From the sequence record PQ374922.1: a DNA stretch of 64,000 bases, one strand, 5' to 3'. Below are positions 22,457 to 46,074 of the stretch, in pieces. This DNA comes from a phage. The notes under the pieces are model-generated. The model was not told the DNA's origin, ran no database searches, and saw only the letters and a program-made list of their open reading frames with translations. Numbering within the stretch: position 1 is the first letter of the stretch; each line of letters starts with the position of its first letter. Position numbers and translations under genes: made by a program.

Positions 22457-22579
22457 CAGAAGCCCCCAACAAACGTTGGGGATTTTTACTTTTAGGGGTT
22501 TACTTCCTCTAAGGAATGTCCTATTATTCAATAACTGGCGAACGATGGCGTTCACCAGATTGAGATGAAGGATTACATT

Positions 22580-23064: not shown

Positions 23065-23079
23065 TTCTATAACTTTGGG

Positions 23080-23107
23080 CGGGGTATGATTACCCCGTCT
23101 ATTTGAA
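23080..23107 (+). terminator. hairpin plus T-rich tract
   Basis: cggggta-tgat-taccccg then tctatttg. Confidence 0.45.
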
Positions 23108-23123
23108 ACCAAGAGACTATATC

Positions 23124-23498
23124 ATGAAAAAGTTAATCCTCGCTGTTGCCCTGCTGGGCGCTTCCTTTGCTGCTGTTTCCGCCCCTCCTGTCATCACCGG
23201 AGTGTCTACCAACGGTGTTTATGCTTTCAAGGCGTATGGCCAAGACCTCGTTCTGTATAAGAACGGGAAGATGATTGAGCGCTGCGTATCAGACGACGTG
23301 AATCGTGGGATCGACAATCAGGGCAGCCCATACGTCCTGGACATCTATTCCTGCTCTAACGGGACGAAGTCCTTTGGCGTCAAGACCTTTGGCAACGTCG
23401 CCGACGGTGGCTGGGGCTTCATGTTCGAAACCCGCAACCACCACCCGGTCAAGACCATGCAAGAAGAGTTCTTGATCTCTGTCGGGGGTACGTTATGA
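23124..23498 (+). CDS. secreted protein with signal peptide (124 aa)
   Basis: N-terminus MKKLILAVALLGASFAAVSA; conserved ctatatcATG start context. Confidence 0.55.
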   Translation: MKKLILAVALLGASFAAVSAPPVITGVSTNGVYAFKAYGQDLVLYKNGKMIERCVSDDVNRGIDNQGSPYVLDIYSCSNGTKSFGVKTFGNVADGGWGFMFETRNHHPVKTMQEEFLISVGGTL

Positions 23499-23782
23499 CA
23501 CCATCAGAGAGAAGTTCTATCAAGGAGATGATCAGAGACAAGGCGTGTGTTGACCATACTCAGTCAGAGAACATCTTGCGCCTGATGGTAATAAAGAACG
23601 ATATCGATAACAGCCGATTCCAATCAGCGCTCTACGGGCTTCTCGAGTTCGTTCTCCGCCAGGCTGATCTTGGTCCTGTCGGTACTCTTGATGATCTAAC
23701 CAAGCTGTTGAACACGGGCGGGGAAACTTTCGACGCCGCTCGTATCCTGATTGACGGTAGACCTGAAGAAGACGAGGTATAA
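23495..23782 (+). CDS. hypothetical protein (95 aa)
   Basis: ATGA overlap with upstream gene. Confidence 0.5.
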   Translation: MTPSERSSIKEMIRDKACVDHTQSENILRLMVIKNDIDNSRFQSALYGLLEFVLRQADLGPVGTLDDLTKLLNTGGETFDAARILIDGRPEEDEV

Positions 23783-23783
23783 T

Positions 23784-23942
23784 TTGGATAAAGAATTGGT
23801 TTGGGAAATTGTGAAGGGTGTCCTAGTAATAATCGCGGTGGTTTTCATCTTGGGTGGGAACTTCTTCTATTGGTTATTCCGATCCGACCAGAAACGTCGC
23901 GAACGCAAGGAGAAAGAGAGAAAGGATCGATGGATGCGCTAA
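23784..23942 (+). CDS. possible small membrane protein (non-ATG start)
   Basis: No ATG in ORF; TTG at 23784 or GTG at 23811 possible; hydrophobic segment then Lys/Arg-rich tail. Confidence 0.25.
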   Translation: MDKELVWEIVKGVLVIIAVVFILGGNFFYWLFRSDQKRRERKEKERKDRWMR

Positions 23943-23974
23943 CTAAGGGATAACCCTATATCCCGAGGTGTGTC

Positions 23975-24424
23975 ATGTTCCTTACATCTTTTATTGACTG
24001 GTTGAACATCATTAACGGCCTGAGGATTCCTGTTGGGAACCTCGGGCTTTCGCGTTCTTCTATGCCACAAATCGATGCCGACAAACAAGAAGATTTTCAC
24101 AAATATCTTGAAGACAACGGCGTGTCCATAGATGCTGTACAAGTGCCCATCAAAATGCTTCGTCTCACCCAGAACGAAATCAACAAGATGAAGGTCTGGA
24201 AGATCATGAAGAACATCAGAAATAAGAAACCTATGGGTCGAGTTTGGGTGTCTTCTGACAATTACGTTGTTGACGGTTCTCACCGATTTGTCGCTGCGTT
24301 GAACATGGACGGCAAACAGCGCATGAAGGTCTACAAAGTTGATTTGCCAGCGATGGAATTTGTTAAACTCGCTAAACAGTTTCAGGGTGTGCGATACAGA
24401 ACGGTCAGCGATACTCGTTTCTGA
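23975..24424 (+). CDS. ParB/Srx-like nuclease domain protein
   Basis: Motif VPIKMLRLTQNEIN ... VVDGSHRFVAA resembles ParB N-terminal domain. Confidence 0.5.
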   Translation: MFLTSFIDWLNIINGLRIPVGNLGLSRSSMPQIDADKQEDFHKYLEDNGVSIDAVQVPIKMLRLTQNEINKMKVWKIMKNIRNKKPMGRVWVSSDNYVVDGSHRFVAALNMDGKQRMKVYKVDLPAMEFVKLAKQFQGVRYRTVSDTRF

Positions 24425-24503
24425 ATACGATAGTTTATTGAATCCCTTTACTCATCATGGTGAGCCGCCTATCATTTCATCCAATGAAATAAGGAGAATC
24501 ACC

Positions 24504-25190
24504 ATGAAACGTTTAATCCTCGGGGTTGTGCTGGCTGGTCTGGCATTACCCGCCGCTGCCAAGCTGAACTCCACAGGTGATAAACTGTGGTCCGACCTTT
24601 CCTATTGTGCTGGGTTCTCCCAGGCGGTTGCCATCGACAAGTCTGGTTCCATAGAGAACTTCGCTGAACTCTGGAACACAGGCAACGTCTCCACTGCTGT
24701 CATCAATGCCGGAATTGAGTTCAACCGTTACAAACAGGGAGCCTATAACCTCAAAGGCTACCTCAATGACGACGAATTTAACCGTGGAGGCATGGAGGCT
24801 GGCGATTTGATCATGACTGGGCGTATGGGCACCCAAGGCCGAATGACCGTAAGACAGTGCCGTTCGCTCCCTTCTCCGGCATTACAGAAGGGTGTGCAGG
24901 TTGGTCGCCGCCACCTGAACCTTATCAACGATGGCAACCAGTGCATCAAAGTATTCGAATACAGCGCTACGCAGACCTCTGATCGCGTCCTGAAGAAGGA
25001 ATGGCGCACCCGCGCTCTTGGTCTCAGAGCCTGGCTGGTTGAGAACGATTATTACTTTGAAGACAGGGTTCAGAACGGTCTGAAAGACCTGGCCACGAAT
25101 CTGAGCGTGAACCTTGATGATCCCCGCATGTCGCGCGAACTCCAGCAGACTCGTGTTGACTGCGACAATATGATGAAGGAGAACGAGTGA
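24504..25190 (+). CDS. secreted protein with signal peptide (228 aa)
   Basis: N-terminus MKRLILGVVLAGLALPAAA; AAGGAG RBS. Confidence 0.55.
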   Translation: MKRLILGVVLAGLALPAAAKLNSTGDKLWSDLSYCAGFSQAVAIDKSGSIENFAELWNTGNVSTAVINAGIEFNRYKQGAYNLKGYLNDDEFNRGGMEAGDLIMTGRMGTQGRMTVRQCRSLPSPALQKGVQVGRRHLNLINDGNQCIKVFEYSATQTSDRVLKKEWRTRALGLRAWLVENDYYFEDRVQNGLKDLATNLSVNLDDPRMSRELQQTRVDCDNMMKENE

Positions 25191-25516
25191 TGAAATGTAA
25201 AATCCTGCTCTTGTTGGTACTGATAGCCGGGTGTGTAAATGCCGCGCCACCGTCTAAACTGAACACATGTGTGGCATGGATGGAGACGTATCAGCAGTTC
25301 CACCCAGATGACAAAGACACATCTATCCTCCTGTCCGACTTCGAGGGGGAGCTGAAGCGCCTTGATCTGTTCAGTGTTGATCAGATAGAGAATGCGCTGG
25401 ATCTTCCCATGATGCTGACTGCGGCTGACAACAGTACACAAACGAAGAAAGACCTGATGTATTGCCGGGGGATTGCCCAGGACTTTGTCGGATTTCAAAA
25501 TAAAGTTTCGGGTTAA
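25190..25516 (+). CDS. predicted lipoprotein (108 aa)
   Basis: Signal peptide with lipobox LIAGC; coupled to upstream gene. Confidence 0.55.
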   Translation: MKCKILLLLVLIAGCVNAAPPSKLNTCVAWMETYQQFHPDDKDTSILLSDFEGELKRLDLFSVDQIENALDLPMMLTAADNSTQTKKDLMYCRGIAQDFVGFQNKVSG

Positions 25517-25555
25517 AATTTAGCCCTACAATGTGAACTGAAGGAATACACTGTG

Positions 25556-26422
25556 ATGCTCCTGACCAAAACAATCGCTGCGGCGATTATCGAAAAGAAT
25601 AAGGCTTTTGCCCCCAACGCAGCCAAAGTTATGTTGGTACACGAAGACGCTCGCGTGATCTTCGCCGAGAAGTTCGAGATGGGCGCGAAGTTCTGGTATG
25701 CCGACAACTTGCGTGAGAGCAAACTTCAGGGTATCATCCACAAACTGACTCTGGTCGCCAAGCGTAATGACCAGGGTGACTGGGTCGGCGTTTCTGACTT
25801 CAGTACGAAGATCACCCCAAAGGCTCCGCTTTCTCGTCAAGAGCGCATTCTGGAAGCCCAGGAAAAGCTGCGTGCGGCTCGGAGTACCCCAAAGGCGAAA
25901 CCAGATGCAAGCCCTGTCATCAAGCCAGCGGTTGTTCCTAAGTCCAAATACCTCCCGCCCGTGAGTCAAAAGGCTGTGGAGCAATTGGTCGAGAAGCGCA
26001 AGGGTGACGTTGTGATGAAGTCTGACTCTTCAGTGGAGCCGTTCAAGCCGGATCCAGCAGAAGTACAGGCGCTGGCAGAAAAGGTAAAGAATTCACAATT
26101 CATTTCCTTGCGTGAACTTGAACCGCCTACTCGCCGTCGTGTCGCCAACGAGCTGTTTGTGTCGTTCAGGTCGGATGGCAAGATCGTCCTGTGCAAAGCC
26201 CTGCGCGATGCAATCCCTTGGACAACTCTGAACATGATGGTCACTCGCGACTTCAAGCGTTTTGGTATCATGCAAGGCAAGGACTACAACGTCAACCAGA
26301 GCGGGACTTATGTTAATCGCGCCATGTGTGACAAACTGACCTTCCCAGAAGATACCGGAACGATCCGTGTCGTTCTGAACTGGGACGACAAGCTGAACAT
26401 GTATGTTGGCGATTTCCAATAA
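25556..26422 (+). CDS. hypothetical protein (288 aa)
   Basis: AAGGA RBS; Lys/Pro-rich central linker. Confidence 0.55.
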   Translation: MLLTKTIAAAIIEKNKAFAPNAAKVMLVHEDARVIFAEKFEMGAKFWYADNLRESKLQGIIHKLTLVAKRNDQGDWVGVSDFSTKITPKAPLSRQERILEAQEKLRAARSTPKAKPDASPVIKPAVVPKSKYLPPVSQKAVEQLVEKRKGDVVMKSDSSVEPFKPDPAEVQALAEKVKNSQFISLRELEPPTRRRVANELFVSFRSDGKIVLCKALRDAIPWTTLNMMVTRDFKRFGIMQGKDYNVNQSGTYVNRAMCDKLTFPEDTGTIRVVLNWDDKLNMYVGDFQ

Positions 26423-26478
26423 TCAATAACCTCGGGCGGCTTATCATAAAGCTGCCCTTTCATTTGAGTGACTATATC

Positions 26479-26940
26479 ATGGAAAAACTTTATTCTATTA
26501 TCGTCGGTCCTGATCCTGACGGATTATTCTTCGCCCCGTTGTCTTATATTGCCCACGCCCGTATCGGTAGCCATTACGCATATTGCACACGTGGCCACGA
26601 CGGTTCCAATATCCTCCATTATAGCCGCCTGAACGATTTCCTGGCACTTCAACCAGAAGATGTTGTGTTGGCGCGTCGCGTGTTCATCGACTTCAACGCG
26701 ATGCACAACAACGAAATCGACGCTCGCTATCATGCCATGCGTTCTATGGAAGGGGGAGACTGCATTTATCGTATCGACCATTTTAGTGAGTTTACCCAAT
26801 CTATTGATTGGTTCGTTTCAGAAAAGACGTTGGGTGAAAGAATCGTCACAACTCCGTGGGCACATGCGGACAACTTCGTGTGTCTACCGATGCGTACAAA
26901 GAAGTCGACAATCTGTGCAACAAGTTCCGCATCTCGGTGA
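26479..26940 (+). CDS. hypothetical protein (153 aa)
   Basis: ATG in conserved gactatatcATG context. Confidence 0.5.
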   Translation: MEKLYSIIVGPDPDGLFFAPLSYIAHARIGSHYAYCTRGHDGSNILHYSRLNDFLALQPEDVVLARRVFIDFNAMHNNEIDARYHAMRSMEGGDCIYRIDHFSEFTQSIDWFVSEKTLGERIVTTPWAHADNFVCLPMRTKKSTICATSSASR

Positions 26941-27140
26941 CCTGTAATCAAGACCTGGGCGAAGAGATACAATGGACAGCTGAGTCTCCTCATTTCAGTG
27001 GCCTGGTGATGACGGCCGAAACCCGTTCCCGTGCTGTTGTCCAGTTAGTACTCTGGGCGTTCTACCAGCGCACCCCGTTCTCATACATGGGACAGAAAGA
27101 GATTGATGAACTCCTGAAGTCTCACGCGGTGGAGGTATGA
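26936..27140 (+). CDS. hypothetical protein; GTG start or frameshifted continuation of upstream gene
   Basis: ORF 26856..27140 overlaps 3' end of previous ORF in another frame. Confidence 0.3.
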
Positions 27141-37645: not shown

Positions 37646-37678
37646 TACGACACCAACTTGAATAGCAGGAACTATATC

Positions 37679-41883: not shown

Positions 41884-42495
41884 ATGAGCAAAATCTTTAT
41901 CCCGTCACACCGCGAAGGATGTGAAATCGCGGCCAACTACCTGCGCGGTCGCATGAACTGCGGCGCTGTCTTCATCGAGCCAAATTCGTTTGACAACAAA
42001 GAATCACCTGATGCCATCGGGTTCCGTTCCGGCGGTTGCTCTATCCTGATGGAAGTGAAGGTGTCTCGCTCTGATTTCCTTACCGACAAGAAGAAGCCCC
42101 ATCGGATGGACCCCACAACAGGTATGGGCGCATACCGCTTTTATGTCTGCCCTCAGGAAGTAATCAGGGTTGAAGACCTACCACCAAAGTGGGGGTTGTT
42201 CTACTTCACACCCCGCAAGTCCCTGATGCCAGTTCATGTGCCAGACATGCAGTACTCTTCATTGTCATCACCGGAGCATTATCAGAAGTACCTTGATGAA
42301 CAGATCAAGAGAGGAAGAACCGTTACCCGGCATATGCGCAGCTACATGGAACTCCTCGACGGCTTCGCCCACTTTGAGCGCAACATGGCTGGGGAACAGA
42401 ATATCCTGTATGGGGCTTGGCGTCAACTGTGTATAGCTCAAAGTCGTGGTGTAGACTATACTGTGACCGAAGTGTTCCAGAGGCCGAAGATCTAA
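41884..42495 (+). CDS. PD-(D/E)xK nuclease-fold protein
   Basis: Core motif SPDAIGF...ILMEVKVSRSD; AAAGGAAAGGA RBS. Confidence 0.5.
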   Translation: MSKIFIPSHREGCEIAANYLRGRMNCGAVFIEPNSFDNKESPDAIGFRSGGCSILMEVKVSRSDFLTDKKKPHRMDPTTGMGAYRFYVCPQEVIRVEDLPPKWGLFYFTPRKSLMPVHVPDMQYSSLSSPEHYQKYLDEQIKRGRTVTRHMRSYMELLDGFAHFERNMAGEQNILYGAWRQLCIAQSRGVDYTVTEVFQRPKI

Positions 42496-43151
42496 TGAAC
42501 TATCAAAAAATTCATGACGCTATAATAACCAGAGCCAGAGATAGAATTTTAACTGGTTACAAGGAAAAACACCACGTCATCCCTCTATCTCTTGGTGGTG
42601 AAGACAGGAACTACAATAAAGTTTCTCTCACAGCATCTGAACATTATATTATTCATCTTCTGTTGGCCAAAATTCACGGCGGGGTAATGGTCAGCGCATT
42701 TAAAAAGATGCGCCACTTGACCTCTAATCCTCCAAACAATAAAGAGTTTGCCGTCAGGAGGGAATTGTTGTGTACAACAGCCGGGGAGAAAGCGAAAGAT
42801 CCACAAAAACGGAAAAGGCATTCTCTGAAAATGAAGGGTAGAAACCATACAGAATCTGCCAAATTATCAATATCCAATTCCATGACTGGGGAGAATAACC
42901 CAATGAAGGGGATACCTGCATGGAGGAACCCGACCAACATCAGCCGAGGAACTCATAAAAATTGGTTGGCGGCTGGAGAAATTTATGACTTGTACGTCAC
43001 AGGGAAATTTTTAAGAGTTATCGACCTCTTCAATGCTTGCAAATTGCCGACATCATACGGAACGGTTTCCACCATAAAAACAAAATTGGAATTGGGTTGG
43101 GAGCCAAGGAAAGACGCGGATTGGTTGCAATTCTATGAGGAACACAAATGA
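42495..43151 (+). CDS. HNH homing endonuclease
   Basis: HNH motif KEKHHVIPLSLGGEDRNYNKVSLTASEHYIIH; AT-rich codon usage unlike neighbours. Confidence 0.75.
   Translation: MNYQKIHDAIITRARDRILTGYKEKHHVIPLSLGGEDRNYNKVSLTASEHYIIHLLLAKIHGGVMVSAFKKMRHLTSNPPNNKEFAVRRELLCTTAGEKAKDPQKRKRHSLKMKGRNHTESAKLSISNSMTGENNPMKGIPAWRNPTNISRGTHKNWLAAGEIYDLYVTGKFLRVIDLFNACKLPTSYGTVSTIKTKLELGWEPRKDADWLQFYEEHK
42495..43151 (+). mobile_element. free-standing homing endonuclease gene insertion
   Basis: Compositionally distinct HNH gene wedged between nuclease gene and primase with overlapping start/stop codons. Confidence 0.5.
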
Positions 43152-44206
43152 AATTTCTCGACGAACAATTCATAAATTACGTTGCTCCCAGACTCGATAA
43201 ATTCAAGTGGGAACGCGTTGGGTCTGTCGCAAATTTTAGATGCCCGCTTTGTGGAGATTCTCTCAAAAGTGCTAATAAACGACGCGGTTATTTTTTCTTC
43301 GATCGAGATAATGACTGCTTTCGGTTTAAATGTCATAATTGCCATAACATGAATGGCTGGTCATTTGAGTTCTGGCTGAAGAAGTTCGACGAACGCCTCT
43401 CAACAGAGTACAACATGGAGAAGTTCCGTCTGCTGGGTGATACGTCGGGCAGACCACTTCCTTCCCTGAAGCCGCTGCCAAAGCTGACACAGACCGCCCG
43501 TATTGGCTCAGTGGCGGCGAAACGCGACGAGAGCCTCCTCGGCAATATGCTACGGCTTGATCTGCTACCGCCTGACCATAAGGCTCGACAGTACGTACAG
43601 TGGCGTGGACTGCCGGAGAGCACTTTGTCCCTCCTGTATTACACACAACACTTCCGCCAGGATCTACTCCAGTTCGAAACGAACCCTGAGAAGCAACTGA
43701 AAATTCCCGATGACGAGCGCCTGGTAATCCCATTCTGGACGCAAGATGGGCGGATGAAGATCGTTCAGGGGCGTGCATTCGACAAGAATGCGACACTGCG
43801 CTACGCAACAGTCAAGCCCAAGGATGAAGACACTAAGGTGTATGGTGAAGACCGGGTAAACATTCACAAGACCAAGCTGGTTGTGGAAGGTCCGATTGAC
43901 AGCCTGTTCCTACCCAACTGTCTTGCATCGGCCGACGCTGATCTACTGAGCGTGAAGGGTGACATTTATATCCCTGATAATCAGTACCGGAACCCGCAGG
44001 TGTGTGACGGTATTCAGAAGATGATAGATAAAGGTGTCAAGGTTGTACTGTTCCCACCAGACGTTCCTTGGAAGGATATCAACGACATGGTCATGCCATC
44101 AAAGGGCAACATGTCCATACAAGACCTCCTGAAGCTGATCGCCAAGAACGTTTACCAAGGTATGGCCGCATCATTACAATTCGCTGAACTGAGGAAAGTG
44201 CGATGA
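43148..44206 (+). CDS. DNA primase, T4 gp61-like
   Basis: Zinc-binding CPLCGDS...CHNCHN and Toprim motif VVEGPIDSLFL (T4 gp61 has LEGPIDSLFI). Confidence 0.85.
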   Translation: MKFLDEQFINYVAPRLDKFKWERVGSVANFRCPLCGDSLKSANKRRGYFFFDRDNDCFRFKCHNCHNMNGWSFEFWLKKFDERLSTEYNMEKFRLLGDTSGRPLPSLKPLPKLTQTARIGSVAAKRDESLLGNMLRLDLLPPDHKARQYVQWRGLPESTLSLLYYTQHFRQDLLQFETNPEKQLKIPDDERLVIPFWTQDGRMKIVQGRAFDKNATLRYATVKPKDEDTKVYGEDRVNIHKTKLVVEGPIDSLFLPNCLASADADLLSVKGDIYIPDNQYRNPQVCDGIQKMIDKGVKVVLFPPDVPWKDINDMVMPSKGNMSIQDLLKLIAKNVYQGMAASLQFAELRKVR

Positions 44207-44409: not shown

Positions 44410-44606
44410 AACTTTTTACTTCACATCACTTCCCTCTAGGCCTCATTCGACGAGGCCTTTTAAAATACTTCAAAAATAATTTTTTAAAAATTATTGAAAA
44501 AGACTTTACTCTTCAATAATGATGCACTATTATAGTTCACATAGGGCGGCAACACACCGCCGAATGAAAAGTGAAATGAACCAACTACATTATGAGGAAT
44601 TACATC

Positions 44607-45279: not shown

Positions 45280-46074
45280 ATGGCCATTCTAAAACTTGGC
45301 AACCGTGGCACTGAAGTGAAGGCACTTCAGGATAGCCTCAACAAAATCGGCTTCACCCTCGTCGCTGATGGTATCTTTGGCAAGGCAACAGAGAACGCCG
45401 TCAAGACTGTTCAGGCGGGTGCGGGGCTTGTCATTGATGGTATCGTGGGTCCAAAGACCTCCTATGCTATTCGCAACGCCGGAGACGCCCATCAGGATCA
45501 TCTAACTGAGTCAGACCTGATTGATGCTGCTAACGATCTGGGTGTTGACCTTGCCTCTGTCAAGGCGGTGAATCAGGTTGAGTCGCGCGGCACGGGCTTC
45601 ACCAAGTCAGGTAAGATCAAGACATTATTTGAGCGCCACATCATGTATAAGAAGCTGATGGCGAAGTTCGGACAGGCTCGGGCGAATGCCATGGGGCATA
45701 TGTACCCGACGTTGGTCAGTCCTTCCGCAGGCGGGTACACGGGAGGCGACGCGGAGTTGGATCGACTTCATGCGGCCATCAACATCGATGAGGATTGTGC
45801 GTACGAGAGCGCCTCTTACGGTCTCTTCCAGATCATGGGATTCAACTGCCAGGTCTGTGGATATGCCAACGCCAAGGAGATGTTCAACGACTTCCTGACA
45901 GGAGAACGTGCTCATTTGATGGCATTCGTGAAGTTCATCAAGGCTGACGCCAAGCTCTGGCAGGCTCTGAAGGACAAGAACTGGGCTGAGTTTGCGCGGC
46001 GCTATAATGGTCCGGCGTATGCCAAGAACCAGTACGACACGAAGCTCGTAGCAGCATACAAGAGTTTCAGTTAA
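45280..46074 (+). CDS. endolysin with N-terminal peptidoglycan-binding domain
   Basis: PG_binding_1-like N-terminus (LKLGNRGTEVKALQ...GIFGKATENAVKTVQ) plus C-terminal glycosidase-like domain. Confidence 0.65.
   Translation: MAILKLGNRGTEVKALQDSLNKIGFTLVADGIFGKATENAVKTVQAGAGLVIDGIVGPKTSYAIRNAGDAHQDHLTESDLIDAANDLGVDLASVKAVNQVESRGTGFTKSGKIKTLFERHIMYKKLMAKFGQARANAMGHMYPTLVSPSAGGYTGGDAELDRLHAAINIDEDCAYESASYGLFQIMGFNCQVCGYANAKEMFNDFLTGERAHLMAFVKFIKADAKLWQALKDKNWAEFARRYNGPAYAKNQYDTKLVAAYKSFS

Follow-up and report, generated by a model that had tools for sequence, protein, structure and literature searches.

Two-component spanins, with lambda Rz/Rz1 as the prototype and T4 PseT.3/PseT.2 as another described pair, consist of an inner-membrane subunit (i-spanin) with an uncleaved N-terminal type II (N-in/C-out) anchor and an extended helical periplasmic domain, often a coiled coil, and a lipoprotein of the outer membrane (o-spanin) with a lipobox, a residue other than Asp at +2 and a short periplasmic domain, flexible and usually Pro-rich or poor in secondary structure; in the last step of lysis they fuse or disrupt the outer membrane. 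A different kind of periplasmic phage protein is T4 Spackle (gp61.3), an inhibitor of the gp5 tail lysozyme that brings about superinfection exclusion. Its gene, sp (gene 61.3), adjoins gene 61.2 in the gene 61 region, which is the primase/replication region of T4. The PliC/MliC lysozyme inhibitors exist in soluble and lipid-anchored forms, and anchoring alters their location, not their function. Here we compare these systems with g5 and g6, two overlapping genes for exported proteins in a 64,000-nucleotide stretch of phage DNA (sequence record PQ374922.1; the whole stretch is referred to as the window). The pair lies within a 3.3-kb span (23124-26422) that a first-pass annotation had described as one cluster of exported proteins; in this span, small genes are strung together as a mosaic and not as a single system, and the functional core is g5-g6.

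The 4.5 kb around the span share 97-98% identity with Escherichia phages YX22, A221, PC3/PH4, RPN242 and AV101 and match 246 phage records, nearly all of them Ackermannviridae. The closest annotated relatives are classified as Ackermannviridae, Aglimvirinae, Agtrevirus, and by these matches the window belongs to an Agtrevirus-like member of the family. Biocontrol, diagnostics and phage therapy make use of Ackermannviridae (Vi01, CBA120, Agtrevirus and relatives), and how they breach the outer membrane is unexplained; a review of the family does not mention lysis at all. The gene pair had already been catalogued as a spanin. What we add is comparative evidence against that name, with no new mechanism demonstrated. 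As a universally conserved, family-restricted, exported two-protein module, the pair also offers a clean experimental target.

Gene structure, conservation and predicted folds of g5 and g6

The pair and its candidate promoter are located as follows.

24447-24475, + strand: candidate sigma-70-like promoter (TTTACT-N17-TATCAT), in the 79-nt gap 5' of g5
24504-25190, + strand: g5, 228 amino acids (aa), exported, residues 1-19 a predicted signal peptide; called 'i-spanin' in relatives
25187-25516, + strand: g6, 108 aa, start at ATG 25190 or GTG 25187, exported; called 'Rz-like spanin' or 'o-spanin' in relatives

Signal peptides were called by rule, from the -3/-1 rule, the length of the hydrophobic (h) region and the pattern of conservation. 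The g5 N-terminus has the n-h-c layout of a secretion signal (MKRLILGVVLAGLALPAAA, then KLN after the predicted cleavage site), with a hydrophobic run of 16 residues and Pro at -4. The 18 close orthologues examined all keep A17 (-3) and A19 (-1), nearly all keep Pro16, and they differ at position -2 (A/S/T/P/H), a pattern that carries the signature of a signal peptidase I (SPase I) site and points to a cleavable-type signal, not a membrane anchor. The signals of divergent orthologues end in ...LLAAGLVVSTSAWS before E, ...LALGLVSFHASA before A, ...LALTMGLVSTANA before G and ...IAGLCFISAPVHA before R. The h-regions of distant orthologues (P0068, P0069, P0075, Bue1, Kevin) have 10-12 residues and are followed by a polar AXA c-region; hydrophobic cores of this length are too short to span a membrane.

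The N-terminus of g6 (MKCKILLLLVLIAGC) contains the lipobox LIAGC (Cys15), with Val at +2, and also keeps the SPase I site of its family (VNA/AP) four residues past Cys15. Since both sites are present, the processing of the window protein is ambiguous. Throughout the g6 family the -1 Ala and the +2 Pro are invariant and the h-region is hypervariable. We surveyed the lipobox in 36 full-length protein clusters formed at 90% identity and, at the DNA level, in 282 phage records. Six clusters have it, all at least 92% identical to the window g6, and a seventh shares their short signal but carries Ser where the lipobox Cys would be. The other clusters have plain signals ending in A/xP; in Limestonevirus, the sister genus, the signal is likewise of the plain SPase I type. 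The short lipobox-type signal is confined to 28 of the 282 records, namely Agtrevirus and phages Marshall and Maynard; the Agtrevirus lipobox is LMAGC (including that of AG3), and that of Maynard is the same as in the window. The lipoprotein proposed by the first-pass annotation is thus borne out for the window itself, but a g6 that can be lipidated is found only in the Agtrevirus-type module.

The secretion signals that had been proposed for three genes of the span (g1, g5 and g6) are real n-h-c signals. In a crude scan of the 64-kb window, these were the only ATG-initiated frames of at least 100 codons that open with MK(K/R/C), a hydrophobic run and a small residue, so such a density, three exported proteins in 2.4 kb, is not typical of the genome as a whole.

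The stop codon of g5 overlaps the start of g6 (GTGATGA), and the translational coupling that had been noted between the two is therefore real. The overlap is kept in six genera: Kuttervirus (Vi01), Taipeivirus (Magnus), Limestonevirus (PP35), Nezavisimistyvirus (Bue1), Miltonvirus (Kevin) and Agtrevirus. In Bue1 (Erwinia) and Kevin (Serratia), g5 consists of the N-terminal domain only (165 and 126 aa, respectively), and the overlap with g6 is retained.

The unit is preceded by genes for a vWA-domain protein and an acyl carrier protein and followed by genes for an HU-like DNA-binding protein and a DNA helicase, which places it in the replication (early/middle) arm of the genome. This agrees with the earlier suggestion of an early region, as does the sigma-70-like promoter candidate 5' of g5. 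Both of its hexamers are held in Klebsiella phage Magnus (TTTACT...TACTAT), where the spacer has diverged. The pattern TTTACT-N17-TAT(C/T)AT occurs three times in the window (22499-22527, 24447-24475 and 44505-44533; 0.15 expected), each time intergenic and on the + strand. Two of the three copies are preceded by TTATTGAA, and the third (44505-44533) heads a unit that runs into the endolysin gene (45280-46074). The T4-type late box TATAAATA is not present near the unit.

The pair was found in every Ackermannviridae genus examined and only in this family, with g5 in 278 and g6 in 282 records; both are core genes. A g5 profile search of 1.84 billion representative proteins returned 10 hits only: the main orthologue cluster, two divergent full-length proteins, one N-domain-only form, and short fragments. 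Ratios of nonsynonymous to synonymous substitution rates (dN/dS) of 0.04-0.10 indicate strong purifying selection on both genes. The N-terminal domain of g5 is 99% identical to that of Vi01, 95% to PP35 and 86% to Magnus, and mature g6 is 78% identical to that of Vi01.

AlphaFold2 (AF2) models of the two proteins are confident, with predicted local distance difference test (pLDDT) scores of 84.7 and 84.2 for the g6/g5 pair. Mature g6 (~90 aa) is modelled as a compact 5-helix bundle (pLDDT >90) that starts 7 residues past Cys15, and the whole protein contains four Pro residues. The g5 model has two compact bundles of short helices, at about residues 19-120 and 140-227. Each domain has one conserved Cys pair, located in its first and last helix (C35/C119 and C147/C220 in g5 and the invariant C27/C92 in g6), and these pairs probably form disulfides, as in disulfide-stabilised periplasmic proteins. 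The shared Cys pattern prompted us to compare g5-N, g5-C and g6 as possible paralogues; this was rejected for want of sequence support (hhalign P 0.87, 0.01 over 11 columns, and 0.19). A Foldseek search of g5 against BFVD found orthologues only, scans of all proteins of the unit against Pfam, NCBIfam and PADLOC gave nothing above threshold, and profile searches of PDB with g1, g4, g5 and g6 found no match.

The public spanin label

The names in public records are 'i-spanin' for g5 and, for g6, 'putative lipoprotein', 'o-spanin' or 'Rz-like spanin'; PHROG 3843, under which the pair is catalogued, is also named 'Rz-like spanin'. The source of the label appears to be the survey of Kongari et al. 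(2018; PMC6139136), whose SpaninDB enters the pair from phage Marshall as a separated two-component spanin, with an i-spanin of 228 aa (98% identical to the window g5) and an o-spanin of 108 aa. Through PHROGs the label has spread into RefSeq and many genome papers. Table 10 of the same survey lists Vi01, CBA120, PhaxI, ECML-4, SFP10, SJ2, SJ3, Maynard, AG3 and Dickeya RC-2014 as spanin-less. Maynard and AG3 carry a lipobox-bearing g6 and are nevertheless called spanin-less, like most of the family, while Marshall is listed as having a spanin (Table S1 of PMC6139136), so the classification is internally inconsistent.

Under this label, g5-g6 would be a non-canonical separated spanin, in which g5 is the inner-membrane subunit and g6 the outer-membrane lipoprotein, and the two fuse or disrupt the outer membrane as lysis ends. 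Among two-component spanins, the o-spanin gene lies within the i-spanin gene, overlaps it or directly follows it. The genes are adjacent and overlap in all six genera, an arrangement that fits separated spanins, with an N-terminal hydrophobic segment encoded upstream and a lipobox downstream; the window g6 has Val at +2, as expected for outer-membrane sorting, and both proteins have conserved periplasmic Cys residues. The hydrophobic segment of g5 reaches 1.84 when hydropathy is scanned over 19 residues, and will therefore be called by transmembrane predictors. Beyond PHROG 3843 and several genome records that use i-/o-spanin names, the Marshall orthologues stand in SpaninDB as 'SIS' and 'SOS', and the family has no other recognised spanin (PMC6139136).

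The two anchors, however, which define a spanin, do not hold across the family. As judged from its sequence, g5 has a SPase I site with invariant Ala at -3 and -1 where an i-spanin has a type II anchor, and the 10-12-residue h-regions of its distant orthologues point the same way. The lipobox of g6, with its non-Asp +2 residue, is confined to the Agtrevirus-type module and is lacking in 30 of the 36 clusters and about 254 of the 282 records (~90%), which means that the orthologue works there without an outer-membrane anchor. The anchor is the mechanism of an o-spanin, but it is optional in the g6 family.

Shape argues in the same direction. In the models, both proteins are compact and globular, with no extended coiled coil, Pro-rich region or linker that could span the periplasm, and only 7 residues separate the lipid-bearing Cys from the first helix of g6. 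The Pepcoil table of SpaninDB gives 0 coiled-coil segments for either Marshall protein, and the same authors called Vi01, CBA120, PhaxI, Maynard and AG3 spanin-less (PMC6139136). Only half of g5 is kept in the Erwinia and Serratia phages, which have lost its C-terminal domain. The endolysin gene lies 20 kb from the pair, although this is a weak point, given that the lysis genes of T4 are scattered too. No experimental work on g5-g6, including complementation of lambda Rz/Rz1, was found in the searchable literature.

With the anchor and extended shape missing from g5, the flexible domain missing from g6 and the lipobox restricted to one genus-level module, we do not file the pair as spanins, and we consider a spanin function very doubtful. 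The first-pass annotation had already remarked that the proteins do not look like typical spanins, and on the evidence of anchors that are missing or lineage-specific and of compact folds we concur: despite its public label, g5-g6 is not a canonical two-component spanin. If the pair is without both defining anchors in most of the family, as the comparison indicates, the 'Rz-like spanin' name is probably an annotation artefact. It is possible, if unlikely, that g5-g6 is a new Ackermannviridae-specific periplasmic system that dispenses with membrane anchors, either a soluble outer-membrane disruptor or a two-protein exclusion module built on an undescribed helical fold with conserved Cys pairs. 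A soluble disruptor, if confirmed, would explain how lysis is completed in a family regarded as 'spanin-less'.

A possible pair of periplasmic binders

Our preferred reading, to which we give a probability of about 35%, is that g5 and g6 form a soluble periplasmic binder or inhibitor pair that is made early and shields the envelope in the way that T4 Spackle does. Both proteins would pass through the Sec pathway into the periplasm, where their signal peptides would be removed and each domain would fold into a compact helical bundle with a Cys pair, probably disulfide-bonded. They would be made together, because their reading frames overlap, and probably early and by the host RNA polymerase, because a conserved sigma-70-like promoter lies just upstream of g5. 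The pair would then bind or inhibit a target located in the envelope. Its likeliest role would be to shield the infected cell from envelope attack from outside, through superinfection exclusion or resistance to lysis from without; an exclusion role, if true, would bear on the design of phage cocktails that combine members of the Ackermannviridae. The first-pass annotation had pointed to superinfection exclusion or envelope remodelling, which is a reasonable suggestion.

The lipid anchor of g6 in the window would be a genus-level addition that tethers the same protein to the outer membrane and leaves its job unchanged. PliC/MliC offers a parallel here, as some members of the g6 family have a SPase I signal and others a lipobox. 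The likeness ends there: PliC/MliC proteins are beta-barrels of bacterial origin, whereas g6 is predicted to be all-helical, is found only in phages and has no Pfam, NCBIfam or PDB hit.

Spackle is the closest functional analogue. Like g6, it is small, Sec-exported and helical, with one Cys close to either end of the mature protein, and both are encoded among the replication genes of a large lytic myovirus with a tail lysozyme; Ackermannviridae carry a gene whose annotation reads baseplate hub with tail lysozyme (PMC10892097). Spackle lacks a counterpart of g5, the second exported protein with which g6 is always paired. We also considered homology between g6 and Spackle and rejected it on sequence. 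With a Spackle alignment built from six T4-like phages, hhalign gave E 0.002 against full-length g6 and P 0.55 on the mature regions; the signal disappeared once the signal peptides were trimmed, and the lead was therefore a signal-peptide artefact. The Pfam model T4_Spackle (PF25676) matched two of 25 g6 members at sub-threshold scores (best E 0.088), and the g6 profile search of PDB did not find the Spackle structures 6x6o and 7cn6.

Several observations weigh against a protective binder pair. Exclusion genes are usually accessory and variable, but g5-g6 is universal in the family and tightly conserved, and an essential role in lysis or assembly would also fit. The 99% identity of the g5 N-domain to that of Vi01, set against 78% for mature g6, is a difference in rate that would not readily be expected of a tight obligate heterodimer. 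The promoter is a candidate by consensus match and phylogenetic footprint only, and transcript data for the g5-g6 region were not found in the literature. Finally, the signal-peptide calls are heuristic, and the Gly/Ala-rich N-terminus of g5 may be of the signal-anchor-release (SAR) type.

In a first rival reading, g5, g6 or both regulate the timing of lysis from the periplasm like the T4 antiholin RI, which carries a SAR domain; by binding the holin's periplasmic part or by sensing superinfection, they would put lysis off. The g5 N-terminus (LILGVVLAGLALPAAA) looks like a SAR domain of the kind found in RI, the proteins are small, helical and exported with conserved Cys pairs, and their core-gene status and strong conservation fit a phage-encoded partner. 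They also come from a T4-like lineage that encodes rIIA/rIIB homologues (PMC9409062). Yet the PDB searches revealed no sequence or fold similarity to RI, a search with T4 T gave no Ackermannviridae T-type holin among the matches listed, and no report of lysis inhibition in the family was found in the literature searched. We regard a role as antiholins as quite improbable.

A second rival holds that the pair acts on a conserved component of the host envelope, such as peptidoglycan turnover, Lpp/Tol-Pal, lipopolysaccharide (LPS)/O-antigen assembly, or a periplasmic protease or nuclease. The envelope would be reconditioned for phage production, or an envelope-based defence blocked, with neither exclusion nor lysis as the purpose. 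The N-domain of g5 is near-invariant across phages of Escherichia, Salmonella, Dickeya and Klebsiella, as would suit a target conserved in Enterobacterales, and probable early expression and a novel, family-restricted fold are likewise in keeping with it; against this, the searches of Pfam, NCBIfam, PADLOC and PDB brought up no catalytic motif and no likeness to known inhibitors. A host target is hard to tell from the Spackle-like binder pair that we prefer, and we take it to be an unlikely alternative; part of the probability goes to none of these readings.

Neighbouring genes and the boundaries of the unit

The 3.3-kb span is filled by seven + strand genes, g1 to g7, whose open reading frames (ORFs) were confirmed. 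The features other than g5-g6 are given below.

23124-23498, + strand: g1, 124 aa, exported, Sec-type signal, accessory
23495-23782, + strand: g2, 95 aa, acidic, without export signal; matches phrog_4458
23784-23942, + strand: g3, 52 aa, TTG start, single transmembrane segment, accessory
23975-24424, + strand: g4, 149 aa, cytoplasmic, weakly ParB/Srx-like
25553-26422, + strand: g7, 289 aa, without export signal; matches phrog_3828
26434-26457, + strand: intrinsic-terminator-like hairpin (9-bp stem, 6 GC pairs, T-rich tail) that ends the unit

Similar cassettes flank the unit. The left one, read directly at 23078-23126 on the + strand, consists of a hairpin (GGCGGGG-loop-CCCCGTC) followed by TCTATTTGA...GACTATATC, which abuts the g1 ATG. 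The right one (26434-26481) has the same layout after g7, with a GC-rich hairpin, T(C)ATTTGA, GACTATATC and an ATG, and its hairpin is stronger than that of the left cassette. The motif [GA]ACTATATCATG has four copies in the window (0.24 expected), the further ones at 37670 and 50890, and the hairpin/GACTATATC cassette may be a reused module for termination and translation initiation. As the cassettes lie before g1 and after g7, the limits chosen by the first-pass annotation match a natural unit.

Within these limits, however, the idea of one cluster of exported proteins joined with a ParB-like gene does not survive comparison with other phages. Two of its members are accessory. The exported protein g1 (MKKLILAVALLGASFAAVSA, then PP after the predicted cleavage site, an n-h-c signal) was found in 106 phage records, against 282 for g6; it has two invariant Cys residues (C54 and C77) and matches phrog_5474 (function unknown), and it had no match in Pfam, NCBIfam, PADLOC or PDB. 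The small membrane protein that had been proposed at 23784 is indeed there, as g3: its TTG start begins one base after the g2 stop, its single transmembrane segment reaches a maximum hydropathy of 2.66, with a short N-terminus predicted to be periplasmic and a very basic tail predicted to be cytoplasmic, and it matches phrog_14464 ('membrane protein') at 7e-22. It occurs in 59 of about 280 phage records. Both g1 and g3 are missing from Vi01, Bue1 and Kevin. Between them, g2 is fast-evolving, with 36% identity to Vi01 and 32% to Magnus.

The gene g4 also stands apart. It had been described as a ParB/Srx-fold gene, a description in line with an invariant D-G-x-H-x-x-x-A motif (D100, G101, H103 and A107 in nine homologues from six phage groups), whereas no curated model or solved structure matches it. 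Hidden Markov model (HMM) matches were to phrog_2859 (9e-45) and to phrog_1033, named 'ParB-like' (5e-4, sub-threshold); Pfam ParBc_2 matched two of the nine homologues at 2.5e-3, which is sub-threshold, while the window protein itself had no Pfam or NCBIfam hit and its PDB profile search returned nothing. The motif and the sub-threshold HMM matches thus suggest a weak ParB/Srx character. In comparison with ParB/Srx-fold domains (ParBc, ParBc_2, DndB), g4 has the DGxH(R/Q)xxA motif at the expected position; it differs in scoring below the curated cut-offs, in having no PDB sequence match and in being a stand-alone protein of 149 aa with a conserved N-terminal LGxxRxxMPQI motif. Nuclease activity is without support.

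Very conserved (dN/dS 0.03-0.07), g4 was found in 432 phage records, including Vibrio K474, Delftia PhiW-14 and Aeromonas CC2, and its domain also lies inside a 4.5k-aa protein of Ralstonia phage Gervaise. Large lytic phages commonly carry this domain, in which the LGxxRxxMPQ and DGxH..A motifs are invariant, and its record labels conflict ('putative structural protein', 'cytidyltransferase', 'N-methyltransferase'). In the Vibrio, Delftia, Aeromonas and Ralstonia phages it adjoins genes of DNA metabolism, for helicase, dUTPase, thymidine kinase or dCMP deaminase, and no g5/g6-like neighbours were found beside it in the Vibrio phages, PhiW-14, CC2 or Gervaise. The window g4 shares 98% identity with Kuttervirus Vi01/PhaxI and 84% with Maynard, whereas for g5, g6 and g7 the identities are 98-99.7% with Maynard and 71-94% with Vi01. 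With g4 Vi01-like and g5-g7 Maynard-like, a recombination joint lies between g4 and g5. On the strength of this mosaic breakpoint and of the synteny in other phages, a link between g4 and the exported genes was rejected.

The last gene of the unit, g7, is 99.7% identical to that of Maynard and moves with g5-g6 in the mosaic; its N- and C-terminal domains are linked by a Pro/Lys-rich stretch. In Marshall and Maynard, which are Kuttervirus phages, the Agtrevirus-type g5-g7 module with its lipobox seems to be an acquisition.

Immediately after the unit lies g8 (26479-27140, phrog_5426), which carries a frameshift when compared with the 220-aa orthologue of PC3: the loss of 1 nt near 26870 (GCGGAACAAC to GCGGACAAC) leaves a 153-aa ORF and an out-of-frame remainder, which could reflect either a pseudogene or a sequencing error. 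Elsewhere in the window, an HNH-type homing endonuclease-like ORF (42417-43151; …KEKHHVIPLSLGG…N…H…) lies directly 5' of the gene for DNA primase (43148-44206), whose start it overlaps, and it has no counterpart gene at the matching position in PC3. Other lipoproteins are encoded in the neighbourhood of the pair in related phages, one of 259 aa in Erwinia phage Bue1 (5454-6233, start MKKVLGLFIMLSAFLLAGC) and one of 91 aa with LASC in Serratia phage Kevin (5142-5417), and this arm of the Ackermannviridae genome seems to be a favoured site for genes of exported proteins.

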